Positions 14,690 through 64,000 of a stretch of 64,000 nucleotides of DNA are shown piece by piece. Numbering within the stretch: the first letter of the stretch is position 1; every line of letters begins with the position of its first letter. The translations under genes were made by a program, and so were the position numbers. The notes beneath the pieces are model-generated. The model made no database searches. It had not been told where the DNA came from and saw only the letters and a program-made list of their open reading frames with translations. The DNA comes from Pirellulales bacterium (GTDB lineage Bacteria > Planctomycetota > Planctomycetia > Pirellulales > JALHPA01): contig CAWHJG010000002.1 of assembly GCA_963829655.1 (NCBI GenBank), forward strand, positions 5,330,786 to 5,394,785, in the 5' to 3' direction.

Positions 14690-14947
14690 ATGCAGCTCGG
14701 TGAAGTAATTGGAACGGCGACCGCCACGGTAAAGCATCCATCGATGAATGGATGGAAGCTGCTGGTCGTGCAGCCGTTCCTGGTCGATGGCCGCACGGTG
14801 GACGGCGACCCTGTGTTGGCGATCGACCACCTGGGCGCGGGCCGCGGCGAGCGCGTGATTATCACCAGCGACGGCGCCGGTACACGAGCATTGCTCGGGA
14901 CCGACGCGACGCCGGTTCGCTGGAGCGTGCTGGGAATCGCAGATTAG
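14690..14947 (+). CDS. BMC-P (EutN/CcmL) vertex protein
   Basis: [29 protein letters not shown]...[19 protein letters not shown]...RWSVLGIAD. It sits inside ORF 14321-14947, whose upstream part is frameshifted aldehyde dehydrogenase. Confidence 0.85.
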
Positions 14948-14956
14948 GAGACGTGT

Positions 14957-15238: not shown

Positions 15239-15269
15239 CGCAATACATCACACGACAATTCACAACATC

Positions 15270-31310: not shown

Positions 31311-31465
31311 TTGTAGCCGGGATTTTGGCTATTTGTCGAAGCACGGCTTTGGCGCCCCGTTTATCGCCAATTCACAGTCGCAACGGTTATACTCAAATCA
31401 AGCCGCAGATCGCAAAACCTCGCCTCGCTTGACACCGTTTTACCACCCTGCCCTGCACCGCTCGT

Positions 31466-34822: not shown

Positions 34823-34829
34823 GGTCTGC

Positions 34830-38387: not shown

Positions 38388-39772
38388 ATGGCGTCGTTTG
38401 GGGTTTCTCGTCGCAGGTTCCTTGCGACCAGCGCCGCAGCGGCAAGCGCCGCGACGCTGACCGCGGCCAGCTACGCGCGAGTGATTGGGGCGAACGAGCG
38501 AATCGGCGTGGGGTTTATCGGGTACGGACTGATTGGGAAGCGGCACGTGCAGGATTTTCAGGCGCAGGAGGATGCGGCGCTTGTGGCGATGGCGGAGACG
38601 CATCGCGGACGGCTGGATGAGGCCGTGGCGACGATCGGCAGCTCCTGTCAGAGCTATTCAGATTTTCGCAAACTGCTGGACAACCGCGACGTGGATTCCG
38701 TCGTCGTTTCGACGCCGGATCACTGGCACGCGCTGTTGACGATGATGGCGTGTGCGGCCGGCAAAGATGTTTATGTGGAGAAGCCGCTGACGCTGTTCGC
38801 CGCCGAAGGAAGGTGGATGATCGACGTGGCGAAGCGCCACGGGCGCGTGGTGCAGGTCGGGACCCAGCAGCGCTCGGGAACACACTATCAACGGGCGCGC
38901 GAGCTGATACAGCAAGGCGCAATTGGAAAAATTGTTTCAGTGAGAATGGAAGCGGCGCGGAATATTCTGCCGGGCTACGGAGCGCCGGCGGATGGAAACC
39001 CGCCTCCGGAAATCGATTGGGAAATGTGGCAAGGACCGGCGCCGTTGCGAGCGTATAACCCGCAGCGGTGCATCTATCATTTTCGGTGGTTCTGGGATTA
39101 TTCGGGGGGGCAGATCACGAACCTGGGACAACATTCGCTCGATATTGTGGACTGGTGCGTCGGTTTGGGTTCGCTGAGGTCGGTAGTGAGCGGCGGTGGT
39201 CGATTTCATTTGAAGGACAACGGAGAGACGCCGGACACGCAGGACGCGATTTTTGAGTGCGACGGCTGGACGGCGACGTGGTCGCATCGTGAGACGGCGC
39301 GGGGGCAAACGCCGCAGTATGGCCTCGAGTTCTATGGCACTAAGGGGAGTTTGGGGATTTCGCGCCGAGGGTTCCGGATTCTGCCTGATGCCATGGTGCC
39401 TCCGGATGAGACGATACCCAGCTTCACCGGCGATGCGTGCGCAGCGCGACCCTGAGGCGGTTCTGGCGGGTCGCAAGCTGCGCACTGAACGAGTCGAGGA
39501 CCGCAGCGGCGATCAGCGCGAGCAGTTTCGGGAGCATGCGCGGAATTTTCTGGATTGTGTGAAGTCGCGGGCGTACGCCGATCTCGGACTTGGAGAGCGG
39601 TCATCGCGTGGCGGCGGCGTGCCATCTGGCGAACTTGTCGCTGCGGCTGGGGCGGAAGGTGCGTTGGGATGCCGAGCGCGAGACGATTGTCGGCGACGCG
39701 GAGGCCGCGCGGATGCTGGTTCGCGAGTATCGGGCGCCGTGGGATCGAGAGTTGAAGGCGGTGGTTTCGTAG
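38388..39772 (+). CDS. Gfo/Idh/MocA family oxidoreductase with a Tat signal (2 frameshifts in the 3' third)
   Basis: [42 protein letters not shown] and DVYVEKP. The C-terminus was reconstructed as ...NFLDCVKSR...[27 protein letters not shown]...YRAPWD. Confidence 0.85.
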
Positions 39773-42529: not shown

Positions 42530-45500
42530 ATGGCCATGCTGCAAGCGCGCCGTCTGGCGCTGCGCCGACCGCGATTTCGTTTTGAGATTCTTGAGGATCG
42601 GACGCTGCTTGCGGCGTCGATCATTCGACCGGGGATTCCGGACTGGACCGAGCGGGGTCCTGGGCCGATTCAGAACGGGCAGGTCGAAGGGTTGACGAAC
42701 AACCCGGTGACCGGCGCAATCGAAGCGATCGCTGCTCATCCGACCAATGCGAATATCGTTTACATCGGCGCGACGAACGGCGGCGTGTGGAAAACGAGCA
42801 ACGCGACGGCGGCCAGTCCGGGCTGGACGACGACGATGGACCAGTATCCAACGTTGTCGATTTCGGCGCTGGCGATCAGCCCGTTGAATGCGAACACGGT
42901 TTATGCGGGGACCGGGCGAAGCAGCAGCGGGTTTCAGGGGGGCGGTGGATTTGGGCTGCTGAAGACCACCGACGGCGGCGACAATTGGACTCAGCTTGGC
43001 CGCGACACGTTTGATGGGATGCGGATCCGGACGATCATCCCGACGGTGAACGACGCCACATCTGGCCAGCAAATTGTGCTGGTGGCGGCGGAAGACACGA
43101 ACATTGGCGACGGCAACGATCGCGGCGGCGTGTTTCGCAGCGTGAACGGGGGCGTGGATTGGACGCGAGTGAATGGCAGCGGGATGTTGCCGCTGGGAAG
43201 CGCAACGCATCTGGCTATCGATCCGGCCGACACGACGATCATCTACGCGGCGCTGGCGGGCAACTATGATCTGAACAGCGACGGGATCGACAACGAAGGA
43301 CCGGCGCAAGCGTGGAGCAACAAAGGCGTCTACCGCAGCAACGACCGCGGCATGACGTGGACGAACGTGAGCGCGGGGATCGTGCTGCCGGCTGATACCG
43401 ACACTGTGGACAACGACGGCGATGGTTTGATCGACGTCCACGACCCGCGAGAGGGTTTGCAGATTTCCACGAAGATCGAGTTGTCGGTTAGCGCGGCGGC
43501 GGGGAGTCCGATATACGCGCTGGCAATTCAGGGGTCGGCCCTGCGGGGAGTGTTTCGCGGAACGAACAGCGGCGCGAATTGGACGTCGATCTCGAATCTG
43601 CCGGCGCTTGCACAGGGGACGTTGCACGTGTCGATGCTGGCGCATCGCACGAACGCAGATGTGTTCTACTTTGGCGGGGATGTATTTTCTGGCGGGCCGC
43701 CATGGGTGGGCGACATCTATCAGGTCACCGCCTCGACAAATACCTGGACGCCCTTCGTAATGGGTGGGGCCAACGGGTCGGCGCCGCACGCCGACTCGCG
43801 CGAGATGGTGTTTGACGCGAACGGAGATTTGCTGGAGGCCGACGACGGGGGACTGTATCGATTGGAAAACGCCGGGACGGCCGGCACGCGGCATTGGGAA
43901 AGCGTGAACGGCAACCTGCGGATCAACGAGCAAAACTCGATTGCTTATGACTCGTTGAGCGGAATTCTGTTTACTGGGAACCAAGACACGGGCAGCTCGG
44001 AACAGATTAGTTTTGGCAACACGACGTGGCGGCAGGTGAATCGTGGCATTGTCAGCGGCAACGGCACGGGTTCGCCGGTGAGCCGCTATATGCAGGGGGA
44101 CGGCAACTTCTCTCAGCAGGTGGATAACACGGTCGCCGGGACATCGCTGCGGTATTCGATGTCGAACAATTTTTCGGGCTTCTATCGGCGTTCGTTCAAC
44201 AGTTCGAACGTGCAACAGGATTTGCGGCCTGATGCAGGCGAGCCGGCCGGACAGGACATGCTAGACCAGCAAGTGATGCTGGCGGCCGCCGCCACGCCTG
44301 GGACGGCGCGAGCGGGCTGAATGCGGCCGATCAGGCGTTTGCCAACTTCGACCGCATTCCTTTTGTGCTCAACGCGACCGATCCGACGCGCATGCTGATC
44401 GGTTACAACGGGCTATATGAGGGCACGAATCGCGGCGATCTGATCACCGAGATTCCGGTTGTTGCAGCAGACGGGACCAGAAGGGTCACGGCGCTGGCAT
44501 ATGGCGGGCGGGAACTGAATACGACGACGCCCGATCCAAACGACACCATCGCAAAGTATGAGGTGTATTACGCGGCGCGTGGCAACGTGATCACCGTGCG
44601 CGCGTCGCTCAATGCGGCGGATCCGTTGCAATTCCGCCGCACGACGCCGAGCGGGGCGGCGACGATCACGGATATCAAGCTTGATCCATCGAACTGGCAG
44701 ATCGCGTACGCGGTAGACGCCACGCATTTATATAAGACGGTAGACGGCGGGCAGACCTGGGACGACGTGAGCGGCTTCTTGCCGATCCGCGAATTGCGGA
44801 CGCTGGAGCTGTATAAGACGGCAGCCGGCGATCACGTGGTGTTAGTCGGCGGCCAAGGCGGTGTTTATCGCACGACGAATCCAAACTTCCTCAGCACATG
44901 GACGGAGTTTGGCGCGGGGCTGCCGAACGTGCTGGTGACGGAGGTCGAGTACAACGCTCCGGCGAATCTGTTGTACGTGGCCACGTTTGGCCGAGGCGCG
45001 TGGACAATCTCGAACGCCAGCGCCGCGTTGAACCAGGCCAGCAAGCTGGAGATCAACGGAGACGGGGCGGCCGACACGGTGCGCCTGGTGCGAAACGCGA
45101 ACAACCCTCTAATGGTGGATGTTTTCGTGAACAACGCTGGGGTGAACCCTACGTTGCGGATTGCGATGCCCACGATGGAGCAGATTATCTTCCGCGGGGG
45201 CGGGGGGGACGACACGTTAACCATTGATACCACCAACGGCGTGATCGAACTGCCGCTGGACATCACGTTTGAAGGTGACGCAAACACCGACCACCTGATC
45301 ATCAACGGGCCGGCAATCAACTTTGGGACGTTTGGCCCGGACGGAGACGGATTCACGGTCACTGTCGCGGCGTCGGGGGAGGACAATCAGACCGTTAAGT
45401 ATCGCAACGTAGAGGATGTGCAGAACAGTTTGCTGGGAACGATCGATCGCCTGATCACCGTGGGCAGCGGATTGAACGCGATGACCAGCAGCCTGAATAC

Positions 45501-48500
45501 GTCGGACGCGCTGGCGCTCAACTTTCCCGCCTTGGGATCATCGTTGGGCCGAGCACTCGCGGGCGAGCCGGTGGTTCAGCCCGATCCCACGGGTACGCGC
45601 AGCGACATTGCAGTGTTTCGCACACTGCGCGCGGAAGGCAGCGACATCATCCGGCGGATGATCGAGGACGGGTTGGGGGGATTCTCGATTCAGGACATCG
45701 GCTCGAAGATTGCGAGCGCCGATGCGCTGCGCGAGAAGCTGGATGCACTGGACAGCACGCCGAACAACGTGGTGTTTACCGATATCAACGGCGTGACACG
45801 ATTTGACGTGGAAGTGCGTAAGTCGTTGTCGGGCGATGCAGACTTGGAATTGAGCGCTCTGGACGGGGCAGTCTCGTTGGGCGGCGTGGTGCGAGCGGCG
45901 GCCGACCTGGTCATGCACGTGGTGTTCGGTGTGGATGACAAAGGATTCTTTATCGAGGCCAGTGCGGCGGGCGAGCCGCTGGTCAGCGTCGAGAATGTGC
46001 GGATCAGCGGCAACGTGCAGGGGACCGGCAAATTCGGTTTCCTGGAAGTCACTGTTGAAGACGCGACGCTGACGGTTGACCCGGATGTTCGCATCAACGT
46101 GCAGTTGACGGAACCGGGGGTTGACCCGCACACCGGCGTGACGGATGGGCTCATACGGCTGTATGAGCTGCGGAGTGTGAGCGAGTTGTTCGACGTGACC
46201 GTCACTGGCGACCCGACGGTGGATGACGTTGTGCTGAACGTTACGGCCGAAGTGGCGGCATTGCTGCCCAGTGGCATTCCGCCGTTTACGCTGGGCAACG
46301 CGCAGGTGACCGCGCGGTGGGCCGATGTGACCGATCCAGCGACACTGACAGTCACGGCTAGCGCCGGACCCGGGCAGGAGCTGTTGAATTTCCTGGAAGC
46401 GACGACGACGCAGATTGTCAGCGGGATCAGCAACCTGGCGGCGTTCACCAACCAGATCGCGGGCATCGACTTGATGGCGGTGAAGATACCGCTGGTGGAC
46501 AAGACCCTCGGCGAGATCCTGGGCGGGACGGCGGACGAGCTGGCGATCAACAACGCCTCGGTCGTCGATATTTCGCCCGAGAGCATTCAGGAGACATACA
46601 AGAAGTTTACGGTCACGTTGTCGGAGATAAACCTCCAGGAGCTGTCGGTTGCGATCGGCGATGAAGTCCTCTACCAGGATACGACAAACACGGCGCGGAC
46701 CGCGACGGTGGATAGCGTGGACGGCGGTAAGCTGGCGCGTGCGCTACCCGAGCGCCAATCCGACGCAACGCCCGCACGCGACGGCGCCCAACTTCAAGGT
46801 GCAGCGAGGCGGATCGCTGGAGCGGCAGTTGCGATCGATTCTGGGCAAATTCGCGAACCCAGTGACGGTGACGCAGGAGATCCCGACGCTGCAAAGCCTG
46901 GTAAGGGCGTTGGCCGACCAGATCGGCGTGGACGTTTCCGCGATCGGCCTGACGGTGAGCGGCACGGGGGCGAACCGCGTGATCGAGATCACGCCGGTGT
47001 TCGATCTTGACCCAATTACGTTCAGCCACACGCTGAATTTTGGCGCGGGAATTCCTGGTTTGAGTTTTGCGGCGACGGGCAATTTCGATTTCACGATCGA
47101 TCCGACGTTCCGGCTGCCGCTGGGGCTGCGGATCGGTCCGGGGCTGGATTTTCAAGACCGATTCTACGTGCGGGCCGACGGGCCGGCGAACAAGGAGATA
47201 TCGCTGGCGGTTACAGCGCAGCTCAACGATCCGAACCTGACGGCGACGATTGGCTTTTTGGACGTGCGGATGACCGAGGATTCGGCGGTGACGCCGAACG
47301 ATGGGATCACGATCACGGCGAACATTGGCGTGGATTTGACCGACCCGGGGACCGCGGCGCGGACAATCGGATTCTGTTCGAGGAGTTCCTGGGGCCGAAC
47401 CCGCTGAACTTGTTCGATGTGTCGATCGACGGAGTGTTCGACATCGACGGGCTGAAAGTGTCGGCCGATGTCGGGAGCTCGACGCTTGGCTCGATCCTGA
47501 TTTCGCTGGATGGGGAGAGCGGACCCGCGGCGCCGGGGCATATCACGAGTCTGTCGCAGCTTCAGAACCTGGCGTCGGCGATTCAGATCACCGGCGAAGA
47601 GAGCTTTTTGGATTTCAACAACATCACGCCGGAAGTGATCATTCAGATGATCTCGGCGCTGATCGACCGGTTGCAGGCGCTCGACAACGGCGGCGTGTTC
47701 GACACCAAGATTCCAATCATCAACAAGAAGCTAGGGGAGATCGTCGATCTGCGCAGGGGCTGGCGGATAAGTTCGGTGATACGAGCGGGGTGCAGGGCGC
47801 TCTCGTTTCGTCGGCCAAAAAGCTGGAGACCTGGCTCAACAGCAAGCTCACGCCGGTCACGGTCACCGTTACGGTTGCGAACGGGCAGATCCTGTTTGCC
47901 TTTGGCTACAGCAAGACATTCGCAAAAACATTCCCGCTGTCGTTCGATGTGGGCGCGCTGGGCGGGCTGGTGGCAACATCGGGGACGGCGAACTTGAACG
48001 TTGCGGCCAGTGCGCAGGTAAACCTCGGGTTGGGGATCAGCACGGCGCCGGGCTTGCCGATGTTGGATCGAGTGTTTTTCGACGCGACCAGCCCGAGCGA
48101 AATCACGGTAAGCGGCACGGCGAACATCGGCTACGACCTGGACAACGATGGCAACACGACGGACTCCAACGAATCGGCGGCGGCGAATTTTGGGGCGAGT
48201 GTCGGCCCTGTGACGATCCAGGCGCGAAACGTGCGCGGGCTGATCGACCTGGGTTTGTCGGGGGATATTAAGGCGGGCGCGAACAACGACGGCAAGCTGA
48301 CTTTGCAGGAGATTGTGACCAATGCGTCGGCCGGGACGTTCGGCAACATCATCGGCGGGTCGTTCACCGGCAACGTGCAAGCGCGAATTCCGCTGGACGG
48401 CAACAACAATGGGAATGTCTCGAACGATCCGGCCACGTTGGAACCGAGCGACGCGATCGTGCTGGTGGCTGGCCGACTGTTGAACCTGGGCAATATTCAG

Positions 48501-51500
48501 TTCGACACGGTGACGCCGCCGGTGAACACCGGAAACGCGAGCGTGGCCGGTGGAACGCCGGGCATCGACGATCCGCTGACCAGCTCTCAACTAGACACGC
48601 TGGGTAATGCATTTGCGATCAAAACTTACAATCTCGCCGGACTGGCGCAGAGTGCATTGAATTTTGGCGATCTGTGGACCGGGATCGACAAGCTGCTGGC
48701 GATCTTGCAGTCGGCGTTGAGCAATAAGGTGCTCTCGCAGAAGCTGCCGTTCTTGGGCGACAAGCTGAAGAACACAGTGGATTTTCTGGTCGATATTAAG
48801 ACGAAGTTGAATGGGGCCTCGTCCAGCACTTACGACACGGTGCGACAAACGCTGTTTAACCTGCTGGGTCCGGGCGCCGGCGGCCTGAACATCATCAAGG
48901 ACCAGAACTCGTCGGGCACCATCACGATTGAGGACATTGGCGGCACCAACAACGCACCGAACGAAATCAGCTTCGACTTGGACTTGGGAGGGACGCTGCT
49001 GAGCACCGACTTGCCGATCGATTTCGATATCGGCATTCCGGGACTTGGCCTGACGGTGCGTCCGCCGTCCGCGGTGAACGTGACGCTGGCGTGGACGTTC
49101 GATCTGAATGTTGGTCTCAGCCGCACAGACGGCTTTTACTATGTCACGTCCGACACAGAAGAGTTCGACCTCGATCTGTTAGTCTCGATCCCGGGGTTCA
49201 ACGCGGAAGGGCGCTTGGGATTTTTACAGTTGGATGTGACCGACGATCTGGCTTCGCCGTCGAACTTCAACTTAGGCTTTTCGGTCGATGTGAAGGACCC
49301 GATCGGCACGAATAATCGTATTTCGACAAGCGAGATCGCGCAGATCTTCAGCAACCTCGCTTCGTACAACCTGTCGCAGATTCTGGGGGCCAAGGCGACC
49401 GGCGTTGCTCATGTGAACCTGGACATCAACGTGAACTTCGGCTCGGCGAGCTTCCCGTCGCTGTTGGCCGATTTCATGCTCGACTGGAACTTCCTGAATG
49501 CGAGCACGGACGCGGGGGCGCTCGACTTCGGCAGCGCGCCGCAAGTAGCGTTTAAGAACATCCGGCTGGATGTGGGCAGCTACTTCGACAAGATGATTCG
49601 GCCGATACTCGATACGGTGTGCGATGTTCTGGAACCGATCCGGCCGATCATCGATATCTTTACGACGCGGCTGCCAGTGCTCAGCGATATCGCGCCGCGC
49701 GGGCGATTGTGGATACCAACGGCGACGGCAGCGTCACGCTCTTGGAGTTGGCGCAGAAGTTCAACAGCCCGTATGTGGGATTCATCGAGGCGGCAGTCTT
49801 CGTGGCACAGCTTTGCGATCAGATCGACGGCATCGGCTCGGGCAACGTTTACATCCAATTGGGGGACTACGATCTAGGCGGCACCGATCCGCGGTCGGTC
49901 GGCAGCCTGACTACGGTGACGCCGCGACTGACCAGCGCGGTGGCAGATACGCTCGCACAATTGGAAGCATTGACGGGCGAGTTCGCCGACGATGCGTACG
50001 CGTTCTTGCAGGACGTGGCTGGCATGCCGGGCGAAGGGGCCGCCAAACCAATCAGCTTCCCGCTGTTTGAGAACCCGGCGTCGGCGGTCAATTTGCTGTT
50101 CGGACGGGACATCAATTTGTTCCTGTTCGACATGCCGCCGCTGAAGTACGACCTCGTGATGGAGATTTTCTTCCCGTTGCTTGGCCCCTTGGGCATCCAG
50201 TTGGTCGGCGAGCTGCACGCATTTGCGGACTTTGCTTTCGGCATGGACACGCGCGGGCTGCGGCAAGTAATCGATACCGGCGATTTCAGCAAAGTGTTTA
50301 ACGGGTTTTTCGTGAGCGATCGGAAGAACGCGGACGGCACCGGACCGGATGTTCCCGAGATGGGGTTGACCGGAAGCATCGATGCCTACGGCGCGATCGA
50401 CTTGGTGGTAGCGTCGGCTGGCGTCGGTGGCGGACTCGCGGCGGAGGTGTACGCGAACCTGCTCGATCCCGATCCGGACGGACCCGGCGGTCCGTTGCAG
50501 CCGGACGGGAAGGTCCACTTCGATGAGATCCTCGAAAACTTCCCCGAATGCGTGTTTGAGTTCACCGGCAAGTTTACGGCGGGGCTGAGCGCGGATCAGC
50601 GTGGGCGTGTGGCCGCTCAAGAAAACGTGGAAGTTCAAGATCGCGGAAGTGACGCTGCTCGACTTCACTTATTCCTGTGTTGACCCGCCGACGCCGCCGG
50701 TGCTGGCGACGAAGACCGATTTCGACACGCTGCGATTGAACATGGGTCCGAATGCGGATGCTCGCGGGCCCGGCCATGGCAGCGGCGGCGACGATGAGAA
50801 GTTCGACGTGCGGCAGAAGTTGGACGATGTCGGCAACCCGGTGCCTGGCATGGTCACCGTGCAGTGGAAGCATTACATCCAGGAATTCAGCGGCGTCGCT
50901 GATATTTTTGCCGACGGCGGCGGTGGCAACGATGAGATATTGATCGCGCAGGACCTGCCGGTGACGAGCAACATGTTCGGCGGCAGCGGTGACGACACGA
51001 TGGTGGCCGGCGGATTGGCGGCGACGCTGCGCGGCCAGGACGGCAATGACACGATCACCGGCAGCCCGCAGAACGATTTTATCTATGGCGACGATCACGA
51101 CGATTTGTTGATCGGCGGCCCGGGGGCGGACCGAATCGAAGGCGGGGCGGGCAACGATGAGCTGCAAGGGCACGCCGGCGCCGACCTGTTATTTGGCCAA
51201 GCGGGGAACGACGCGTTGATCGGCGGGGAAGAAAACGATTTCATGGTCGGCGGCGCACCGAACGAAGCCGGCGAGGACAAGGACGAGCTGTTGGGCGACG
51301 CTGGGAACGACACGATGTTGGGCGGGGCGGACGACGACGTGATCGAGGGGAGCGAGGGAGACGACCAACTCTACGGCGAAGCCGGCAACGACTTTATGCA
51401 GGGGGACGCCGGCAGCGACACGCTCGAAGGCGGATTCGACCATGACAATATTGCCGGCGGAGATGGAGTTGACACTCTGCGCGGTGGCGGCGGCAATGAT

Positions 51501-54500
51501 CGACTAGACGGCGACGGCAGTAACGATCAACTGTTTGGCGATGCCGGCACAGACACTATTCGCGGGGGAACCGGCGACGATCAGCTTTTTGGCGGCGACA
51601 ACAACGATCGGCTGTATGGCGATTCGGGAGTTGACACGCTGCGTGGCGAGCTAGGTGATGACGAACTGTACGGCGGGCTTGGCGTCGATACTCTTCACGG
51701 CGACGCGGGGGCGGACTATCTGAGCGGCGGGTCGTCGAACGACTTCCTGTTTGGCGGAACGCAGAATGACACCCTGTATGGTGATTCGGGGAACGACCAG
51801 CTTTCTGGCGACGATCACGACGACACGCTGCATGGCGGCACCGGCGTTGACACGATGCACGGCAACGCCGGCCAGGACAAGCTGTACGGCGGCGATCAGG
51901 ACGACGTGTTGTTTGGCGAGGCCGGCAATGACCAAATCTATGGCGATGCGGGTAACGACAATGCGCAGGGCAACACCGGCCTCGACACGATGTACGGTGG
52001 CCTGGGGAACGATACGCTTGCCGGCAACGAAGACAGCGATACGATCCATGGCGACGACGGCAACGATTTGATTTCGGGCAATGTTGGCGGCGACTTTTTG
52101 TGGGGTGACGGCGGCGCCGACACGATCGACGGCAACGAAGACGGCGATGAGATCCACGGCGGCGCCGGGATCGACTTGATCCACGGCAACACGGGCGCCG
52201 ACACGATCTTCGGCGACGGCGACGCCGATGTAATCTTCGGTGACGAGCAACAGGACACGATTCAGGGCGGCGATGGCCCCGATCGGCTATACGGCAACGA
52301 CGACATCGACACGATTCACGGCAATGCCGGCGACGACTACGCCGAAGGAAATGCCGGCGGAGATCTGATGTTCGGTGAAAGCGGTCGCGACGTGATGTAT
52401 GGCTTGGCCGGGTTGGACATCATGCACGGCGACGAGGGAGAAGATCACGTTTACGGTGGAGTGGACGATGATCAGCTCTTTGGCGACGAAGGCAGCGATG
52501 TTCTGGAAGGGAACGACGGCAACGACATGTTGTCGGGCGGCGAAGAGGGGGATTTTCTTTTCGGCAACGCCGGGGCGGACACGCTTGCGGGCGATGCAGG
52601 AGACGATCAGCTCGACGGCGGGATTGGAATCGATACGCTTCAAGGTGGCGACGACAACGATCTGTTGTTTGGTGGCGGTGGCGTCGGCGACGTGCTGCAC
52701 GGTAACGCCGGAGATGATCGCATTTTTGGTTCGGACGATGGCGCGGACGACCCGAATTTGTTGGATGCGATTCGGTTTGGCGATGTAATCGACGGTGGAA
52801 CCGGTAAGGATGAAATCTATGGCCTTGGCGGCGCGGACGATATACAAGGTGGAGACGACAACGATCTAATCGACGGCGGCGCGCGGGGTGATCTGGCGCG
52901 CGGCGGATTGGGACGCGACACGATCTACGGCGCTGTCGGCAACGATAATCTGCAAGGTGGCGACGACAACGATCGAATCTTCGGTCAGCAAGGGGCCGAT
53001 CTGATTTCCGGAGAAGCGGGCGACGACATTCTCGATGGCGGCACCGGCACGGACAATATCTCGGGCGGCACGGGGAACGATGAGCTGCTCGGCGGCGGAG
53101 GCGCGGGAGATGTGCTCGACGGCGGCGACCAAGACGACATTTTGCGCGGCAGCAACGACGGCGCGGATGTGATGACTGGCGGCGCGGGCGCGACCGATTG
53201 CTTGGAAATGCCGGGAACGACTCGCTGGGCGGCGGCACGGGCGATGACATTCTGGAAGGCGGCCTCGGCGATGACACGCTCAGCGGCGACGCGGGCAGCG
53301 ACGTGCTCTTAGGCAACAATCAGCACGACACGCTTTACGGGCATTCTGTCAGCGGGTTGGGCGACGACAATGCAGTCGATTATGTGTATGGCGACTTTGG
53401 CACGAACGCAGACGAAGCTGGTTCGGGGCGCGACCGTTTGTTTGGCCAAGGGGGCAATGACCTGCTGTTTGGCGAGTCCGACGACGATTTTATCGACGCC
53501 GGCGCTGGCACGAGCAACATCGTTGATTTTGGCACTGGAGAATCGGGGACGCCGAACGACTTTGTGCCGCCGACACCGACGGCAAACCCGCCGCTCACCG
53601 CTGTCGATATTGATCGAGCAGCCGCTTCGCTGCCGACGGGGGCTGATGGACGTGGCCGCTGGGTCGAATATGCGCTTTCGGCATCCGGCCGCGGAACCAG
53701 CGGCGACGCGGGTCTAGCGCTCGAGCCGAGCACCGTTGCCAGTGTAGCCGGCGGTCAATACGTTGCCTGGTCGGACTCGCGGAACGGCAACTTCGAGATT
53801 TATCTCGCGCGGCATATGGCGGGCGCATGGCAGCAGTTGTCCAACAGCGCAGAGCGCGGCGGCATCAGCGCAACGCTTGGTTCTCGCGCAGACCATCGAT
53901 CGCATTGGATGCCAGCGGCGTGCCGCACGTGGCCTGGACCGAGGCGACAGCCGCCGGCACCGACATTTATGTTGCACGTTACGATGCGGCTGCGAATGGC
54001 GGGTTGGGAGCGTGGGTGGCGGTTGGTTCGTCGCTGTCGGCCGGCGGAATCAGCGCAACCGGCGGCGCTGACAATGCATCGTTGTTGTTCACCTCGGCCG
54101 GACCGGTGGTTTCGTGGCTCGATTCGTCGTCGGGCGTGACGCAGGTGTATGTGCGCCGATTCACGGCGGGGACGTGGCAGGCTGTGGGCGCAAGCGGTGC
54201 AAGCGGCGGTGGCGTGTCGAACTCGTTGACCGGCGTGAGTGAATTATCGATGGCGGCGGACGGCGCGAAGCTGGCCGTAACCTGGACGCAAACGGTTGGC
54301 AGCGGCCGCGAGATCTATTTGCGCGAATACGCGGGCGTTGCGTGGAATGAGCTTTCCGCAAGCGCAATGGGTGGCGGGTTGAGCAACACCGTCGGTGACA
54401 GCACGTCGCCCACGGTTGCCTATCATTCCGGGTCGCCGTATGTCGCTCTGGCGCGACAACACGGACGGTCGCTACGCGATTTTTGCGCGGCGTCACACGG

Positions 54501-57500
54501 GCGCGGCATGGGTGACCGCCGGTGCGAGCGTCAACGTGAGCGGCTTCCATTCCGGCGCGATGAATGAGGCCAGTCGGCCGAAGCTGCAATCGTTGGGCGG
54601 CCAGTTGTTTCTGATTCACGTATTCAACATTCCGGACGACACACCGACGAAAGATTCGCAATCCCCGCCGGCGATCGAGGCACTGCACGCAATGCGGTGG
54701 AGTGGCTCGGCGTTTGTGGAACACTTGCCGGGCGATGCCCGCGGACAAGGAATCAGCCCAACGGGCGGCGTGATCCAGAACCTGGCGGTGTCGGTGGATA
54801 CGGCAGGGCGTCCGTTTGTCGCGTGGCAAGATGCGCGGCACGGAACGCCTGAGGTTTATGTTCGCGGCAACACCTTCAACGTCGGCACGATTTATTTTGT
54901 GAACGATGCATCGTTAGTTGGTGATATTGCGACGACCGCGGCTGGCGCGTCGGGCAACACCGGACTTACGCCGTCAAGCCCGAAGGCATCGGTTCAGCAA
55001 GTGCTGGACACGTTCAACGTAAATCCGGGGGACGTGATCTTTGTCGATACCGGGATGTATAGCGCGGCGATCACGATCGGCGGCGACGACGAGGGAGCGA
55101 CTATTATCGGCGCGATTGGGCAGACGGCAACCTTTCAGCAACTGGTAACGGTCGGCGTGCCGAACGTGACGCTGGAGCGGATCAATCTATTCGGTGGCGC
55201 GACGGTGACGGCCAACAACTTCACGGCGACCGACAATCGCTTTTATGGAGCCTTGCTGCTAAGTGGAGGTGACGGCGCACAGCTCTCGCACAATTTGATC
55301 GAGTCCACTCTCACGCTAGCCGGCGGCGTGAGCGGTGCGATCATCCAGCACAATGAACTTGGCGGAAACGGTGACGCGATCGTGGTATCGGGGGCGGTGG
55401 GGATCACGCTGCTTGGCAACCGGATCCTGCATGATGACGACAAGGGGATTCGAATTGCGGCGCCGTCGAGCGGAATCATCCGCGGAAACCGGATTGAAGG
55501 CGGCGACGTGGGCCTGGACATCGCCGCAGCGTTTAGCGGGATGATTGAGGGCAATGAGATCAGCGGAGTCAGCATCGGCGTGAACTATTCCGCGCCCGCC
55601 GCATTGAGCGGCAACCGTATTCACGGTGCTTTTGTTGGTGTTGAGAGCACGGTCGCGGGAACCACGAATGGTTTTGGTTTCGTTGGAACGACCGAGCCGA
55701 ACGAGATTTATGACAACACCACCGGGGTGCAGCTCACCGGGCAAATGCGCCACCAGTACATCCATCACAACACGACAGGCGTGGCCGGATCGGGACTGCT
55801 CGACAGCGGCGATCTGGAACACGCCAACCGGATCGAGCACAACACAACGGGCGTCAATTTCAGCGGACCCGTCCTGTTCAACCGGATTGCAAATAACGAA
55901 GTCGGAATCGTGGCCGTCAATGGACAGCTCATCGCACACAACCTGATTTATCGCAACGCGCAGACCGCGCTGCGCGTGCAGGGTCGCAACGACGTACGAA
56001 TCTTCAACAACACGTTTTATGCACCGGCGGGGGACAATATCCGCATCGACGGATCGTCGCGCGAGGTGGAGATTCGAAACAATATCCTGTGGGCCGAGGC
56101 CGGCTATAACATTCACGTTGCCGACAACAGCACGGCCGGTTTCTGGAGCGACTACAACGTGCTGCATGCCAGCGGCACGGGCAAGCTGGTGTATTGGACG
56201 CGCGATTTCACCGACATCCTGGATTGGCAGGAAGATGTCTTCCGGTTCGACCTCAATTCGATCGGTTATACGGTGGTCAACCCGCTGTGGTCCGAGCCGC
56301 GGTTCTTCAATCGCGGCAACGATGATTATCGCGTATTCGACCAGGTTGCGCGGCTGCGGTTTACCAGTCCTACCATGGATGCCGGCGACCCGCGGGCCGA
56401 TCAGGCGTTGCCTGCGTACTACAACAACCTGCTCACGAACCCTGGATTTGAGAGTGGGATCACCGGCTGGACGGCAACGCCGAGCGGCGGAACGCGCTCG
56501 ACCAATCCGACGCCGTGGAGCGGCGGAGCGTATTTCTTTGCACAATCGAACGCGGTCACGTCAGTCGAGCAGACGGTGGACTTGATCGCGAAGGGGTACA
56601 CCGCGGCGCAAATCGACAACTCAAACTTGTCGTCCGTCTTTGGTGGGCGAGTGCGAAGTGCGGCCGAGGCACTGCCGGACCGGGGCGAGCTGACGCTGAT
56701 CTACGTGGATGGAGTGGGTACGGAGATCAACCAGATTACGGCCAAGGCAGTGAACGTAGCAGACCGCTGGGAGTTGGTGGGAACGCGGCAGCCGGTACCC
56801 GTGGGGACGCGCACGGTCAGGCTGCGCTTTACGGCCATCACACCGACCGGTGGCGAGAACAACAGCTATCTCGACAGCGCGTTTTTGTACGTCCATCCCA
56901 ATAGTGAAGCGCCGAACCTGGGCGGCTACGGCAATACAACTCACGAACAAGCTCAGAACCTCAATCAGCATCTCGTAATGCGCTCGCCCGACCTATACAA
57001 GGACTGGGAGCGCGACAAGCCGCTGACCATCCGCTGGGATTCGTTCGGGAATACAGCCAACGGTCCAGTCAAGATTGACTTGTATCAAGACGGCGCACGG
57101 GCCGCAATTCGTCACGAACATTGTTCCGGTTACGGCGGACACGGGTGAGTTTCCCTGGATCGCCGGCAACAGCGGCGTGAACTTCGCCACATATGGCTTG
57201 CGGATTCAGGTTTCGCTGATCGGCAATCAAACGATCCATGACCGCAGCACTGAAACGTTTACGGTGCCGGAGAATACTAACACGTTCTTCGTCAACGATA
57301 GCAGTCAAGCAAATGATCAATACACATCAACAATCGGTGGCAATCGCAATACCGGTAAGCTCGCCGACCGGCCGAAGCCGTACCCGAACAATGTCCTTCG
57401 CATCTACTCGCTCGGGCCATCGCAGACGCTGTTTGTCGATACGGGCGACTACCGTTTGCTCAGCCCGTTGGTGTTGTCGAACGTTGTCGGAGTTGGCGAC

Positions 57501-60500
57501 GACGAGGGTTTCACACTGACAGGACCCTCGATCGCGGGCCGTACCGCGCTGTTGCATCACGCGAACCAGTTTACGGTAGCGCCGCTGGTGACACTGATCG
57601 ACGCCGACTTCGTGACGCTCGCGCACTTGACGCTGGATCGCGGGCAATACGGACTGTGGGCGCGCGACAGCAGCACGAATCTGGCGTTGACGAATATCAC
57701 GGTCACCAACAGTACGCTTGACGGATTCCGCGTCGAAGGCGGCTCCACCGGGCTGTTGTTTGATCGGCTGACCAGTGACAACAGCGGCCGCTACGGAATG
57801 GTGCTGTTCAGCCCGCTTCAGGCATTGCGGAACAGCGTGGCATCGAACAGCGGATTGACCGGCATTTATTTTGATCAGCCGGGGAACGTGTCAGTCGAAC
57901 GGACCGAAGTATTTGGCAACGATGAGTATGGGATTTACATCATCAACGCGGCCGGAACAACCTCGGTGATTGGCGACGCCGATTTATCGCAAGGCGACGG
58001 CAACAAGGTCCACGACAACGCGCGCGACGGAATCTATGCCAGCGGCTCCGTCGTCGTCGCGGGAAATCACGTCTATAACCACCTCGGGACGAGCGACATT
58101 GGCATCGGCGCCTACAACGGAGCGCAAGCGATCCGCAACGCCGTTCACGACAACTATCTGGGCATCGACGCTCAAAGCGGCGGTCAGATAGTCGAGAACC
58201 GCGTGTATCACAACACAACCACCGGAGTTCAAGGTGGAGGCTCTTCCGCACAGTTGTTGGGTAACGTCATCTACAGCAATGCGGTTGGCGTGCTGTTGAT
58301 CTACAACTTCGGGGGATCGCTGGTCAATAACCTGATCTATTCCAACCTGACGCACGGCATCCTTGCACAGGCTTACTTCGCTATCGGCACCAATATCGTC
58401 AACAACACCATCTATCAGCCGACTGGAACCGGCATACGCATCGACAGCGGATCGCGCAATGTGCGTCTGCGGAACAACATTATCTGGGTGCTGAGCGGGT
58501 TTGGAATTTCGGTCGCGAACGATGCGCAAAGTGGTTTCGCGAGCGACTACAACCTGTTGTATGTCACCGGAACCGGTCAGATCGCGGAATGGCAAGGCAT
58601 CGGGCGGCCGACATTGATCGCCTGGCAAAACGCCGGATTCACGGACGGAAACAGCCTGTCGCAAGACCCTTTGTTCGTCGATCTCGACGGCGCGGACAAT
58701 CAACTTGGGTGGGTTTCGCCCGCGAACGATGGCCGCGACGACGATTTTCACCTGAAGAGCCTTTATGGGAGTTTCCACGGTGGCGCGCTGGCGCCGGCGG
58801 TAAACGCTGTCTCCGGCTTGCCACAGTTTCTGACCGCAACGTTGCTGGTCGATGCGTCGCAATCGCCGGCAATCGATCGCGGCGATCCGCTTGATTCACC
58901 GATTAACGAACCGGCGAACAATGGTGGCTATGTCAATCTTGGCGCTTATGGAAACAGCGCCCAGGCGTCGAAGAGCCCCGCGGAATACGTTCTCGTTACG
59001 CGCGCCGACGGCGGCGAAGTCTGGCCGGCAACGCAGACCTTCCCGATCCGTTGGCGGACGAATCGCGATCCATCACAATATGCGCTCCGCTTCGACGGGG
59101 TGGACGATTATGTGGGCATGGGCGATCCGGCGAACAACTCGCTTGATATCGGCCCCAATGGAACGCTTGAAGCGTGGGTGCGGTTTGACCAGCTACCCTC
59201 CGGCAACCTTTACACGATCGCCAGCAAGGATGCGGGTGGCGGCGGAACCAATAAGTGGATTTTTGGTTATGGCAACAGCTACAGCAACGTGACCAATTCC
59301 ACGTTCCTGCACATCAATCGAGCGGCGGGCGGGTCGGTATTCTTGACCTCGAATCCGTGGACGCCGGTCATTGGCCGCTGGTATCACCTGGCGGTCGCGA
59401 AGAGCGGAGACAATTACAGCTTCTATCGCGATGGAGTGCTGGAAGGCACGCCGACGACCACCGTGCAAGTACCCGATGTGGCCGCGCCGTTCGAAGTGGG
59501 GCGCGGAGGGCGATTTCCATTTCCGCGGTTCGATCGACAACCTGCGGCTGTGGAACGTTGTGCGCACGCAGGTTGAGATTCAAAACAACATCGATGAAAC
59601 ATTGCCACCAGCCACGTCCGGATTGGCCGGATATTGGCGGTTCAACGATGCTTCGGGCACGACGGCGACGGACGGCACCGCCAACGCAAACCACGGCACG
59701 CTGGGCGGCGGCGTAGTCGCGCGGCAACCCGCTTGGACCGCCTCCGATGTGCCGTTTGGCAAGGTGGACGTGGAGCTGCTCGATGGAGCAACACCGGTGG
59801 CATTATTGGCCGACGACACGCTGAATGACGGCGAATTCGTGTGGACGATTCCGGAAGCCACGCCGCCGGGGACAAACTATCGTATTCGTGTAACGCGCGT
59901 GGGGACGGCCGTGACCGATACGAGCAACGCGGCCTTCACGGTAACGCTGCCGATCACCGTGTACTACGTGAACGACGGGACGGTCGAGGCGGGCGATTGG
60001 ACGACCGCGCCTGGCAACGACGCGAACGACGGACTGTCGGCGGCGACACCCAAGTCGTCGATCCGCGCGGTTTTGGAGACTTATGACCTGGATGCCGGCG
60101 ATGTGGTTCGTGTGGATGCCGGCACGTATGCGATTGGAACGAACATCATCCTCGCCGCGAACGACGCGGGCGTGAAGATCGAAGGTTACCACGAGGCAGC
60201 GTTCCCAACGCGGCGGGCTTTGATCAATCGCGGCAACGTAACCGCCGGCAGCTTCGCTTTCGAATTACAGAACGCGGACGATGTGATTCTGGATTACCTG
60301 CACGTCACTGGGGGACAACAGGGGATATACGCTTCGGCGAGTTCTGACAGCGACCGTGTGACGATTACCAACAGCGTGTTGTTTGGCAATTCGAGTGCTG
60401 GCGTGTATTTGGAGGGTACGAACGACTTTGCGACAGTCAGCGGCAACCGGTTCTTTGGTGTATTGGACAACGCGTCGGGGAACGACAATCAGCCGTATGG

Positions 60501-63500
60501 CGTGATCCTGACGGGCAACGACGGGACGGTGACGCTCAACACGCTCATCGGCGGCGGCTCGAATGAAGGGATCACCGTCGGCGGCCTGCGGCACACGGTC
60601 ACTGGCAACGACGTCAGCGGGCACAACTCGGGCATCTATGCTTACAGCGCGGGACCGGGTGCGGATCGGACCACGGTCAGCGGCAACCGGGCGCACGACA
60701 ATGCTTCGTGGGGTATTTACGCCAGCGGCAACATCCTGGTCATCGGCAATGATGTTTTCGGCCAGGAGGCTCAGAACGCCCACGGAATGTATATCGCTGC
60801 GAGCGAAGCGCGCGGCAACCTGGTGCACGACAACTGGCACGGGCTCCAGATCAGCGGCAGCCTGGTCGAGGACAACACGATCTACAACCAGCTACAGACG
60901 GGCGTGAACGCGTACGACTCCGCAGTGCTTCGCGGCAACCGGATTTACGACAGCGCGACCGGCGTGTACGTGGCCTACAACTATTCCGGCGAGGTGGTCA
61001 ATAACCTGATCTACGATCAAAGGACCACCGGTGTTTTGGTGGAGGCCTACTTCGGCCTCGGCACACGGATCACAGGCAACACGATCTACCAGCCGGGCGG
61101 GGCCGACGCGGTACGATTGCAGGCCAACACGCTCAATGTGACGTTGGTCAACAACATCCTGTGGGTGGGCGGCGGTTATGCGTTGTCGGTCGATCCCAAC
61201 AGCCAGCGGGGGTTGGTCAGCGACTACAACCTGTTCTACACGACCGGCACGGGCAAGCTGGCCTTGTGGGAGAACCGCGACTTCACCAGCCGGGTGGATT
61301 GGTTCTACGAAGTCGGCTTCGATGAGCACAGCCGGGTGGCCGATCCGCTGTTTGTCAATCCGGCGGGGGCTGACGGGATTTTGGGTTATCGCGCGGGCGG
61401 CTTGTCGGCCAGCTACTACAACAATATCAACTGGACCGATCCGCCGGTGCTGACGCGGATCGAGCCGCTGATCAACATGAATCTGGGGGGCGCAAGCCCG
61501 CAACCCGGCACGGTCAATGCGGACAACTTCTCGGTCCGCTGGCAGGGGCAAGTGTTCATCCCGGCCGACGGCCAGTACACGTTCTACACGCAGAGCGACG
61601 ACGGCGAGCAGTTCTTTGTCGACGGCAACTTGCTGATCAACCAGTTGGTTTGGGACGGCGGGTTGGAAAACTCGACCACGCTGGTGTTGACAGCCGGCTG
61701 GCATACGATCCGCTACGACCTGCGCGAGAACACCGGCATGCGCGGGCGGAGCTGCGTTGGAGCGGTCCGGGGATCCCCAAGCAGATCATCCCCGAGCCGT
61801 ACCTGGCGCCTTTGGGCGGTCCGCCACCGCTCAACGCGGGCGCGGACGACGACTTCCATCTCTTGTCCGGCTCTCCGGCGATCGACGCCGGCAGACTGCA
61901 GTATTACTACCTGGAAGAGCAGTTCCCCAACGGCGACCGCGCGGACATTGCTGCCTATGGCAACACGGCGCAAGCTTTCCTCAGCCCCCAACAGATTGTG
62001 CAAGTGCTCTCACCGAACGGGCTGGAGAAGTTCGAGCAAGGGCAGCAGGTGCAGATCGATTGGCGGAGGGCGGGATTGACACAACAGCGGCCGGTGGCGT
62101 TGATCAACGCCGGCGGTCCGGCGTTGGACAACTATCTGGGGGATCGCTATAGCACGGCGCCGTCCACGTTTACCTCGATTGGCAACGCGATCGACCTGAC
62201 GGGCGTGACCGATCCTGCGCCGGCGGCTCTGTATCAAACATTGCGCTATACGTCGAGCGGCGCGGTGGGTTTCCGCATGGGCTACGAGTTGCCGGTTCCC
62301 GACGGCAGTTATACGGTGCGGCTGCACTTTGCCGAGCCGACCTACAACACCGTCAACCAGCGGAAGATGGACATCTACTTGCAGGGCGCGTTGGTGCAGA
62401 ACGATTACGACGTGCGGGCGGCTGCCGGCGCGATCTACAAGGCCACCACGCTCACGTTCCCGGTGACCGCCAGCGCCAATGGCGGGATCTTGTTGGAGTT
62501 GGAGAACGTGCTCAACCAGGCGTTCATCAACGGGATCGAGATTTTGGCGGCCAACCCGCTGGGTCAGGCCAACCCGACGGTGAACCTGGAGCTGTCGAGT
62601 AATGATGGCGCCAGTTGGAGCCCGTTGGCCAATAACCTGACGATGGATCGGTTTGGCCGCGGCAGCTATCTGTGGAACGTTCCAGCCGGGCAGGCCGAAA
62701 GCAGCCAGTACCGGATTCCGCGGTGGCCAACGTAGGAGGCACAGTCCAAGACACCAGCGACGAAGCGTTCCTCGTCGCCAACAGCGGACAGCACTACTAC
62801 GTCAACGACGCCTCCACCGCCGGAGACTCCTTCACCTCGGCAATCGGGAATAACCTCAATAGCGGGAAGTCACCAAGCCAGCCGATGGAGAGCTTGTTTG
62901 CGCTGTTCTCTGCCTACGATCTCAGCGCGGGCGACGTCATTCACGTGGATGCTGGAACGTACATCCAGATCAAGAATATTCTAATTACGAACCAAGACAG
63001 TGGAGTTCGAATCGAGGGTCCGGCGACAGGGGTTGCGCCTATCAGTCGCGGCAATACCAACGCTAGCCAGTACACCTTCGAGCTGGTGAACGCGGATGAC
63101 ACTACTTTTGATCGGTTGCACGTCACTGGGGGACAACAGGGGATATACGCTTCGGCGAGTTCTGACAGCGACCGTGTGACGATTACCAACAGCGTGTTGT
63201 TTGGCAATTCGAGTGCTGGCGTGTATTTGGAGGGTACGAACGACTTTGCGACAGTCAGCGGCAACCGGTTCTTTGGTGTATTGGACAACGCGTCGGGGAA
63301 CGACAATCAGCCGTATGGCGTGATCCTGACGGGCAACGACGGGACGGTGACGCTCAACACGCTCATCGGCGGCGGCTCGAATGAAGGGATCACCGTCGGC
63401 GGCCTGCGGCACACGGTCACTGGCAACGACGTCAGCGGGCACAACTCGGGCATCTATGCTTACAGCGCGGGACCGGGTGCGGATCGGACCACGGTCAGCG

Positions 63501-64000
63501 GCAACCGGGCGCACGACAATGCTTCGTGGGGTATTTACGCCAGCGGCAACATCCTGGTCATCGGCAATGATGTTTTCGGCCAGGAGGCTCAGAACGCCCA
63601 CGGAATGTATATCGCTGCGAGCGAAGCGCGCGGCAACCTGGTGCACGACAACTGGCACGGGCTCCAGATCAGCGGCAGCCTGGTCGAGGACAACACGATC
63701 TACAACCAGCTACAGACGGGCGTGAACGCGTACGACTCCGCAGTGCTTCGCGGCAACCGGATTTACGACAGCGCGACCGGCGTGTACGTGGCCTACAACT
63801 ATTCCGGCGAGGTGGTCAATAACCTGATCTACGATCAAAGGACCACCGGTGTTTTGGTGGAGGCCTACTTCGGCCTCGGCACACGGATCACAGGCAACAC
63901 GATCTACCAGCCGGGCGGGGCCGACGCGGTACGATTGCAGGCCAACACGCTCAATGTGACGTTGGTCAACAACATCCTGTGGGTGGGCGGCGGTTATGCG
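42530..64000 (+). CDS. Giant multidomain secreted or surface protein (at least ~7,150 codons, 3' end outside the window), read through about 13 apparent frameshifts
   Basis: Fourteen abutting or overlapping same-strand ORFs continue into each other's reading frames at every junction. The N-terminus is MAMLQARRLALRRPRFRFEILEDRTLLAA (LEPR-XLL-type motif). Domain content is listed in the sub-features below. Confidence 0.7.
42780..45010 (+). other. BNR/Asp-box beta-propeller region of the giant protein
   Basis: Asp-box-like motifs KTTDGGDNWTQ, RSVNGGVDWTR, RSNDRGMTWTN, GTNSGANWTS and KTVDGGQTWDD. Confidence 0.75.
45010..50900 (+). other. Uncharacterised region of the giant protein built from 3-4 divergent ~330-400-aa modules
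   Basis: Recurring motif pairs are GFLEVTVEDA (~46040) with KIPLVDKTLGEILGG (~46490), and GFLDVRMTED (~47250) with KIPIINKKLGEIVDL (~47710). A third pair is GLIDLGLSGD (~48240) with KLPFLGDKLKNTVDFL (~48750), and a fourth is GFLQLDVTDD (~49215) with RLPVLSDI (~49670). EF-hand-like loops are ANNDGKLTLQEIV and DTNGDGSVTLLELA. Confidence 0.5.
50910..53530 (+). other. RTX (hemolysin-type calcium-binding) nonapeptide repeat block, about 870 aa
   Basis: An uninterrupted series of GGxGxDxL/I/F-type repeats, for example GGAGNDELQGHAGADLLFGQAGNDALIGG and [28 protein letters not shown]. Confidence 0.9.
53654..54870 (+). other. Six to seven ~55-60-aa repeats, probably a beta-propeller of an unnamed type
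   Basis: Recurring pattern ...VAW.D....G..EIY[LV].R...G.W..[LV]G.S...GG[IV]S... Examples are YVAWSDSRNGNFEIYLARHMAGAWQQL, HVAWTEATAAGTDIYVARYD, VTQVYVRRFTAGTWQAVG, REIYLREYAGVAWNEL, YAIFARRHTGAAWVTAG and FVAWQDARHGTPEVYVRG. Confidence 0.55.
54887..56404 (+). other. Right-handed parallel beta-helix (PbH1/NosD-like) module 1
   Basis: TIYFVNDAS...PGDVIFVDTGMY..., then repeated GN.I....GI.. coils (GNRILHDDDKGIRI, GNRIEGGDVGLDI, GNEISGVSIGVNY), then IRNNILWAEAGYNIHV...SDYNVLH...SPTMDAGDP. Confidence 0.8.
56420..56900 (+). other. CBM4/9-like (galactose-binding-like jelly-roll) domain
   Basis: NLLTNPGFESGITGWTA...AYFFAQSNAVTSVEQTVDL...VRLRFTAI...YLDSAFLYV. Confidence 0.6.
57282..58965 (+). other. 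Parallel beta-helix module 2
   Basis: TFFVNDSS...LFVDTGDYRL..., coils (GNHVYNHLGTSDIGI, RNAVHDNYLGIDA, ENRVYHNTTTGVQ), LRNNIIWVLSGFGISV...SDYNLLY...SPAIDRGDP. Confidence 0.8.
59076..59590 (+). other. LamG / concanavalin-A-like lectin (Laminin_G_3-type) domain
   Basis: ALRFDGVDDYVGMG...GTLEAWVRFD...WYHLAVAKSGDNYSFYRDGVL...FRGSIDNLRLWNVVRT (crosses one frameshift). Confidence 0.75.
59959..61395 (+). other. Parallel beta-helix module 3
   Basis: VYYVNDGT...AGDVVRVDAGTYAIG...LHVTGGQQGIYAS..., coils, LVNNILWVGGGYALSV...SDYNLFY...DPLFVNPAGADGILGY. Confidence 0.8.
60299..61182 (+). repeat. Copy 1 of an exact direct repeat of at least 884 bp
   Basis: Base-for-base identical, by visual comparison of every line, to 63117-64000 (offset 2,818 bp). 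Confidence 0.9.
61399..61805 (+). other. PA14 domain inserted in the tail of beta-helix module 3
   Basis: GLSASYYNNINWTDPP...ADNFSVRWQGQVFIPADGQYTFYTQSDDGEQFFVDGNLLIN...GWHTIRYDLRENTG..AELRWSGPG. Confidence 0.8.
62094..62552 (+). other. Malectin-like carbohydrate-binding domain
   Basis: VALINAGGPAL...ALYQTLRY...YTVRLHFAEPTYNTVNQRKMDIYLQGALVQNDYDV...AFINGIEILA. Confidence 0.75.
62792..64000 (+). other. Parallel beta-helix module 4 (truncated by the window end)
   Basis: HYYVNDAS...AGDVIHVDAGTYIQI...LHVTGGQQGIYAS..., identical to module 3 from 63117 onward. Confidence 0.8.
63117..64000 (+). repeat. Copy 2 of the exact direct repeat of at least 884 bp (runs into the window edge)
   Basis: Identical to 60299-61182. 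The 320 bp upstream of each copy are homologous at the protein level but clearly diverged. Confidence 0.9.

Follow-up and report, generated by a model that had tools for sequence, protein, structure and literature searches.

The DNA analyzed here is a 64,000-nucleotide stretch (the window) of contig CAWHJG010000002.1 (positions 5,330,786 to 5,394,785, forward strand) in assembly GCA_963829655.1 of a Pirellulales bacterium, and its subject is the giant gene that runs off the right-hand end of it. On the + strand, between 42428 and 64000, 14 overlapping stop-free stretches that step among all three reading frames cover the whole span. Together they constitute the 5' part of one gene (42530..64000, + strand, 21.5 kb), which is truncated by the window end. 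(An earlier note, made from the letters of the window alone, had listed 14 abutting plus-strand open reading frames (ORFs), and every one of its spans is present. Its three junction peptides are correct to within a few residues and the first is misplaced by ~20 nt: this junction, ...AAAATPGTAR followed by SGLNAADQAF, lies that far downstream, at 44311.)

One gene through thirteen junctions

All 13 junctions between the stretches have been placed at the DNA level by comparison with a relative of ~90% nucleotide identity. This is ERZ25039565:contig_83013 (loci L001 and L005), which shows 90.7% and 89.8% nucleotide identity with the window in two alignments; a single alignment shows L005 to be collinear with window 50178-64000. 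Judged against this relative, one base is absent from the window at 44311, 47356, 47751, 49694, 53186, 53881, 61739 and 62719, two bases are absent at 50592, 57093 and 59501, and the window has one surplus base at 46739 and 54448 (all on the + strand). Repair at these 13 one- or two-base indels yields 7,171 codons, with zero stops across all 14 segments and the frame open to the window end, in keeping with the prior estimate of at least ~7,150 codons and a 3' end lying beyond. The criterion of Reva & Tummler, as used in PMC5177795, calls a gene giant when its single ORF exceeds 5 kb; the repaired gene has 21.5 kb in the window.

That these frames belong together is established by homologues in which they are not broken. 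MCC6127522.1 (P0123), from a Pirellulales metagenome-assembled genome (MAG), is uninterrupted over 6,007 aa and annotated as 'right-handed parallel beta-helix repeat-containing protein, partial'. A tblastn search with this protein traces one collinear chain from 42581 to 60384 through 11 frame changes at 50-73% protein identity. In a second Pirellulales MAG an ORF (L003, JALHLM010000236.1) is collinear with 60073-63997 and spans the last two frame changes; a scan of genome contigs returned relatives at 62% and 50% identity. Because a 6,007-aa uninterrupted homologue is collinear through 11 of the junctions, the case for a single gene is far beyond chance. The 14 reading frames are one gene, not fourteen, and the continuity of frames that had been read from the junction peptides holds at all 13 junctions, which MCC6127522.1 and the L003 ORF span between them. 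The reading advanced here, at a probability of roughly 0.88, is that this is one intact ~27-kb gene, from a Pirellulales-type planctomycete, whose product is a giant protein that is exported, and that the gene is split by 13 small consensus indels concentrated at GCGC-containing contexts.

The length of ~27 kb comes from the relative, whose frame (with errors of its own) continues past the equivalent of the window end. There it encodes PA14 and malectin a second time, one more beta-helix (the fifth) and an Ig-like region; strand-rich repeats come next, together with three loops that are dockerin-like (type GDGNLDGLVNFDDY), and the stop is at ~L005 19635. Extrapolated to the window, the full gene would measure ~27.3 kb (~9,100 codons) and its stop would fall ~5.8 kb past the window, near window-equivalent 69.8 kb. 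(An early estimate of the length from L003, ~740 aa past the window, has been superseded by that from the closer relative, which shares a 2,818-bp duplication with the window and runs ~5.8 kb on.) The L003 orthologue scores above the cut-off for Dockerin_1 (PF00404; 37.8 bits, 4 stretches) and also contains Big_5.

In the window the duplication just mentioned shows as a perfect 884-bp direct repeat on the + strand, with copies at 60299..61182 and 63117..64000, the second of which reaches the window end. Its period of 2,818 bp is that of one beta-helix-PA14-malectin supermodule. In the relative this tandem duplication of 2,818 bp is present as well, with 92.4% identity over 3.3 kb; the perfection of the repeat in the window, when set against this, could reflect gene conversion or collapse of the assembly consensus. 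MCC6127522.1 and the contig_83013 orthologue, both of which carry hypothetical annotations, are collinear with the window gene and identical to it in domain order; the perfect internal 884-bp repeat distinguishes the window copy from both.

Domain organization of the protein

The domains follow one another as the earlier note had them: a BNR propeller, modules of no recognized kind, RTX repeats, another propeller, and beta-helices with lectin-type inserts (all coordinates are on the + strand, and residue numbers are those of the stitched protein). The profile scan that it had recommended found HemolysinCabind, Beta_helix/NosD (four modules), Laminin_G_3, PA14 and Malectin; the propellers stayed below threshold, and CBM_4_9 was not found in the Pfam scan of the giant-gene frames.

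At the N-terminus, an Arg-rich stretch is followed by a putative planctomycete cell-surface export motif (RRLALRRPRFRFEILEDRTLLAA; 42548..42616, residues 7-29, in which the Arg-rich stretch precedes FEILEDRTLLAA). Residues 19-28, EILEDRTLLA, fit exactly the ExLExRxLLA core of the consensus RRLxxExLExRxLLA (PMC8567305), the N-terminal export motif of planctomycetal surface proteins for which that paper cites Studholme 2004. In that paper the motif is put forward as a putative signal, specific to planctomycetes, for export to the cell surface; it is present on 8 of the 10 longest proteins of Tuwongella immobilis (4,016-10,566 aa), and motif-bearing proteins were detected in the envelope fraction soluble in sodium dodecyl sulfate (PMC8567305). 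The Pfam model of this motif, PF07595 (Planc_extracel), scores 17.2 bits on the window N-terminus (E 0.004), under its cut-off of 25.5. The earlier identification of the N-terminus with the LEPR-XLL motif is not borne out: the NCBIfam LEPR-XLL model NF012209 (threshold 17 bits) finds no match in it even at E <= 10, whereas three homologues that share the propeller and core, taken as positive controls, match the model at the same N-terminal position (P0170 with 32 bits, P0206 with 23.4 and P0178 with 37). What the window motif has in common with the LEPR-XLL proteins is the LExR.LL core, and it is the related ExLExRxLLA motif that fits instead. The pattern LE.R.[LVMF][LMF] occurs near the N-terminus in 19 of 29 homologues inspected.

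A BNR/Sortilin-Vps10-type beta-propeller region of ~790 aa follows (42647..45015, residues ~40-830, with junction 44311 inside it), and its size fits a double propeller. Sortilin-Vps10 (PF15902) scores 22.9 bits in the Pfam scan, below the cut-off of 33; the region has 1,770 homologues, most of them with PF15902. The modelled blades match the GH74 and Ycf48 propellers by fold (Foldseek E ~1e-6; for GH74, E 7.7e-7 and a template-modelling (TM) score of 0.23). Searches of PDB sequences with phmmer gave no match for the propeller region, for the core that follows it, or for beta-helix module 1.

This core of ~1,900 aa (45043..50759, residues ~840-2750; junctions 46739, 47356, 47751, 49694 and 50592) is conserved, and its internal repeats define three weakly similar sub-modules. 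It corresponds to what had been described as ~2,000 aa of unknown modules, and uncharacterised it is: no match was found in Pfam, in NCBIfam or among PDB sequences. The fold search of an 809-aa model was dominated by its propeller blades; a second model leaves them out. This AlphaFold model of residues 840-1404 (window 45043-46737), built with 37 homologues, has a mean confidence (pLDDT) of 83 and a predicted TM score (pTM) of 0.66. It opens with a small beta-sandwich, followed by a helical region and then by a sheet in which the hairpins are very long and the strands reach 22 residues. Against the PDB, Foldseek returned nothing significant for the model (best E 0.034, TM <= 0.2).

An RTX block of ~890 aa comes next (50907..53575, residues ~2800-3690; junction 53186), made of calcium-binding nonapeptides. 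HemolysinCabind (PF00353) scores 450.6 bits over 31 stretches and, in the adjoining frame, 57.8 bits over 3 more, and ~42 tandem matches to the nonapeptide GGxGxDxUx place the block among RTX repeats. Beyond it lie six repeats of ~57 aa with the pattern (V/A)xW...G..E(I/V)Y..R (53723..54874, residues ~3740-4125; junctions 53881 and 54448), which probably form a six-bladed propeller; BNR_4 is sub-threshold here, at 22.5 bits vs 27.3.

The remainder of the protein, from residue ~4130, is built around four right-handed beta-helix modules in the window, all above the cut-off for PF13229/PF05048 and each preceded by an Ig-like domain. Module 1 (54887..56419; PF13229 61 bits, NosD 45 bits) is followed by a domain whose one Pfam match, to FBA, is far below threshold (15.5 bits vs a cut-off of 32.4) and then by a Kre9_KNH-type Ig-like domain (28.4 bits; the two together 56432..57272, containing junction 57093), which leads into module 2 (57285..58937; PF13229 95 bits). 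A Laminin_G_3 (concanavalin-A-like lectin) domain at 59097..59600 (48.1 bits; junction 59501) and an Ig-like domain at 59734-59916 (Kre9_KNH 22.7 bits) precede module 3 (59983..61365; PF13229 87 bits). Next are a PA14 domain (61399..61698; 55.3 bits), which matches PDB entries 6qe7 and 6qdi (6qe7 is the PA14 domain of C. thermocellum RsgI3; E 1.9e-22), and a Malectin domain (62100..62471; 62.7 bits) in a segment flanked by junctions 61739 and 62719. Module 4 (62795..64000; 83.8 bits) is cut by the window end.

Relatives and proposed function

The N-terminal part of the protein is widespread. An exhaustive HMMER search with residues 596-1404 returned 7,377 representative clusters with E<1e-3, of which 245 have E<1e-30, and many of the matches are proteins of 2,000-7,876 aa that match over the entire query. 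(A word-index search with the core piece 47751-49694 gave 2 matches; the exhaustive search of representatives was needed to show the size of the family.) Comparison of the stitched protein by blastp with the top 150 homologues shows that they have its propeller and core in common with it, usually along with the RTX block; the beta-helix half is not shared. In this sense, the N-terminal 2,750 aa and the RTX block form a conserved chassis, and the C-terminal half is a variable payload. The homologues go by source names such as 'Ca2+-binding RTX toxin-like protein', 'autotransporter-associated beta strand protein' and 'hypothetical protein'.

Giant genes are an established feature of planctomycetes: genes of >5 kb were found in all 29 planctomycete genomes examined, and genes of >20 kb in 15 of them, with predicted roles in adhesion and carbohydrate binding (PMC5177795; Kohn 2016). 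The window protein is like these giant surface proteins in having a gene of >20 kb, an N-terminal motif that fits the consensus, domains that predict adhesion or carbohydrate binding, and a planctomycete context. It differs from them in a motif HMM score below the cut-off and in its chassis (propeller, 1,900-aa core and RTX) and beta-helix/lectin payload, which are not described there. Thus, the earlier statement that the architecture could not be placed in a described family overstates its novelty, since genes of >20 kb and motif-bearing giants are both on record (PMC5177795, PMC8567305): the protein belongs to the already known planctomycete giant surface proteins, and it is the particular chassis and payload that are new to those papers.

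Other genes of the window (PSCyt1/PSCyt2/PSD1, DUF1501, and DUF1559 with N_methyl) fit a planctomycete. The PSCyt1/PSCyt2/PSD1 gene (1,129 aa) and, directly after it and in the same frame, the DUF1501 gene (470 aa) occupy 31433-36235 (+ strand) and form the usual planctomycete pair. Genes for aldehyde dehydrogenase, EutN/CcmL pentamer proteins and class II aldolase are clustered at 13209-16013 (+ strand) and look like a planctomycete-type bacterial microcompartment locus.

The RTX block of the giant protein ends at residue ~3,690 and is followed by ~3,480 residues in the window and by ~5,400 in the full-length relative. RTX adhesins of the LapA, MpIBP and FrhA type, which are substrates of type I secretion systems (T1SS), are likewise very large and combine calcium-binding RTX repeats with a PA14-type sugar-binding domain and Ig-like or ligand-binding modules. 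In the window protein, in contrast, the RTX block is internal rather than beside a T1SS signal at the C-terminus, a putative export motif stands in for the N-terminal retention module, and a long series of BIg extender repeats is absent. No genes for a T1SS (ABC transporter, membrane fusion protein (MFP), TolC) were found among the window ORFs scanned, which were not all of them, or among the downstream neighbours in the relative (DLH, Fer2 and MoCoBD); such genes could lie elsewhere. With its RTX block internal and no T1SS genes seen among the scanned neighbours, the giant protein falls outside the T1SS RTX toxin/adhesin class as defined.

The earlier note had suggested a cell-surface adhesin or glycan-processing fibre. 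A surface, glycan-binding role is the sensible reading of the domain content; the catalytic (lyase) part of the suggestion is speculation, there being no PDB sequence match behind it. In outline, the Arg-rich ExLExRxLLA motif would direct the protein to the cell surface, where the RTX block would fold extracellularly into calcium-bound beta-rolls and stiffen the molecule. The conserved propeller-plus-core region may serve as a shared base or stalk, from which the C-terminal array would display its lectin-type domains (LamG, PA14, malectin) for polysaccharide binding on beta-helix/Ig-like spacers. (In the relative this array comprises five beta-helix modules, each after an Ig-like domain, interspersed with LamG, PA14 and malectin.) The beta-helices might also cleave polysaccharide, and the C-terminal dockerin-like calcium-binding repeats seen in relatives could tether the chain. 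The net function would be that of a multivalent attachment or glycan-capture fibre.

The alternative that has to be taken most seriously accepts one intact gene and gives it a mainly enzymatic or toxic role in place of an adhesive one, as a secreted array of polysaccharide depolymerases, in which CBM-like helpers would accompany beta-helices with lyase or hydrolase activity, or as an RTX-type cytolysin-like effector with a membrane-inserting core. The beta-helix/NosD modules have the fold of pectate lyases and phage depolymerases, and the N-terminal propeller resembles GH74 xyloglucanases by fold; there is no sequence match, however, to a solved lyase, GH74 enzyme or toxin. On the side of toxicity stand the 22-residue beta-hairpins of the core model, the gasdermin, leukocidin and BPI-type folds among its weak Foldseek matches, and the 'RTX toxin-like' names that sources have given to homologues. 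The pore-former matches are not significant (E >= 0.034, TM <= 0.2, probability <= 0.07), and the internal position of the RTX block and the lack of T1SS genes among the scanned neighbours speak against this role as well. An enzymatic or toxic main function is, on balance, unlikely, though it deserves to be kept in mind.

A further proposal concerns the core itself, which might be a structurally new module family, common to hundreds of giant proteins and always preceded by an ExLExRxLL-type leader and propeller and followed by an RTX block. In this capacity it would do the work of a dedicated device by which megadalton proteins export themselves or are anchored at the surface, with the beta-helix/lectin half as exchangeable payload. 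The proposal is a highly tentative one, and it is doubtful that all of it will prove correct.

Origin of the frame disruptions

The deposited sequence has thirteen frame disruptions, and at one of them, 61739, the relative is disrupted too, as might be expected of a true pseudogene: a once-giant gene that is decaying by real frameshift mutations. Such decay is very improbable. In the first place, substitution relative to contig_83013, from which the window has diverged by ~10%, is dominated by third codon positions in all 14 segments: position 3 takes 57-92% of substitutions per segment and 75% overall, compared with 33% for sequence free of constraint. All of the segments have therefore stayed coding since the lineages split, and purifying selection acts on every one of them. 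In-frame stops and large deletions are, moreover, absent from the repaired gene.

Secondly, the sites of breakage differ among three related assemblies. Contig_83013 is broken at other positions than the window: its 2,407-aa ORF passes through the equivalents of 50592, 53186, 53881 and 54448, and 57093 is read through, while an indel of its own is located at the equivalent of window 56959. The cluster mates P0121 and P0122 are broken at yet different sites.

Thirdly, the same type of lesion is found in other genes of the window. A class I aminoacyl-tRNA synthetase gene at ~4.8-8.1 kb (window 4800-8078, + strand) is spread over at least 4 ORFs in different frames. It carries tRNA-synt_1, Anticodon_1 and DUF5915, and is on this account ileS-like. 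A GFO_IDH_MocA oxidoreductase gene (38388-39769, + strand), close to the giant gene, has two frame changes (at ~39434 and ~39574) when compared with its intact 460-aa orthologue in L001. A broken ileS-like gene, essential as it is, points to indel errors throughout the assembly. Thus, the frameshifts are assembly-wide consensus errors and are not particular to the giant gene.

Finally, the lesions are concentrated in one sequence context. GCGC occurs within 4 nt at 8 of the 9 junctions that were located first, vs 10% of background positions; the other four are likewise in GCGC contexts, which makes ~12/13 overall. The same bias is seen in isolated indels between two related assemblies (window 38264-64000 vs L001/L005), 17 of 27 of which are near GCGC (background 15%). 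GGCC, CCGG and GCCG were tested for enrichment at these isolated indels and none was found. Clustering at GCGC is the mark of a systematic error in the consensus that is tied to one specific motif; a GCGC-containing motif may be methylated and give rise to a basecalling artefact. Homopolymer slippage has been rejected as the source of error: the indels are at GCGC contexts, outside homopolymer runs.

Several observations weigh against the reading of one intact gene for a giant, exported, glycan-binding protein. Junction 61739 (L005 11562) is the sole junction at which the frame is lost in the relative too, through an indel of another length (the two assemblies differ by one base); it may be a real lesion or a hot spot of error at CATGCGCGGG. 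The last 5.8 kb of the proposed gene lie outside the window and are assigned to it through collinearity with the relative, in which (L005) Dockerin_1 is sub-threshold at 14.9 bits. A classical hydrophobic signal peptide is absent from the N-terminus. Lyase or hydrolase activity of the beta-helices or propellers would be speculation.

A reading of the ORFs as individual genes (neighbouring surface-protein genes in an operon), which is how gene callers enter them (P0001, of 596 aa, and called genes in L001 and L005 are examples), or as pieces joined by programmed frameshifting, is already refuted: the homologue runs through 6,007 aa without interruption; the junctions interrupt domains and repeats (the RTX block at 53186, Laminin_G_3 at 59501, propeller blades at 53881 and 54448) and lack start contexts, as had been noted before; and junction sites differ between relatives, with no common slippery motif.

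The reading of one intact gene split by consensus indels has a practical consequence. Runs of abutting ORFs in this assembly are products of consensus indels, and the gene calls, pseudogene counts and protein catalogues based on it undercount giant proteins; database entries hold the present one as fragments of 596 aa and similar size. For the planctomycetes, these findings on a giant gene do not overturn current understanding. They add one reconstructed example, of ~9,100 aa, to the giant surface proteins of this group, and show its N-terminal 2,750 aa and RTX block to be a widespread chassis with variable C-terminal payloads. The uncharacterised middle of that chassis is a reasonable target for domain definition and structural work.

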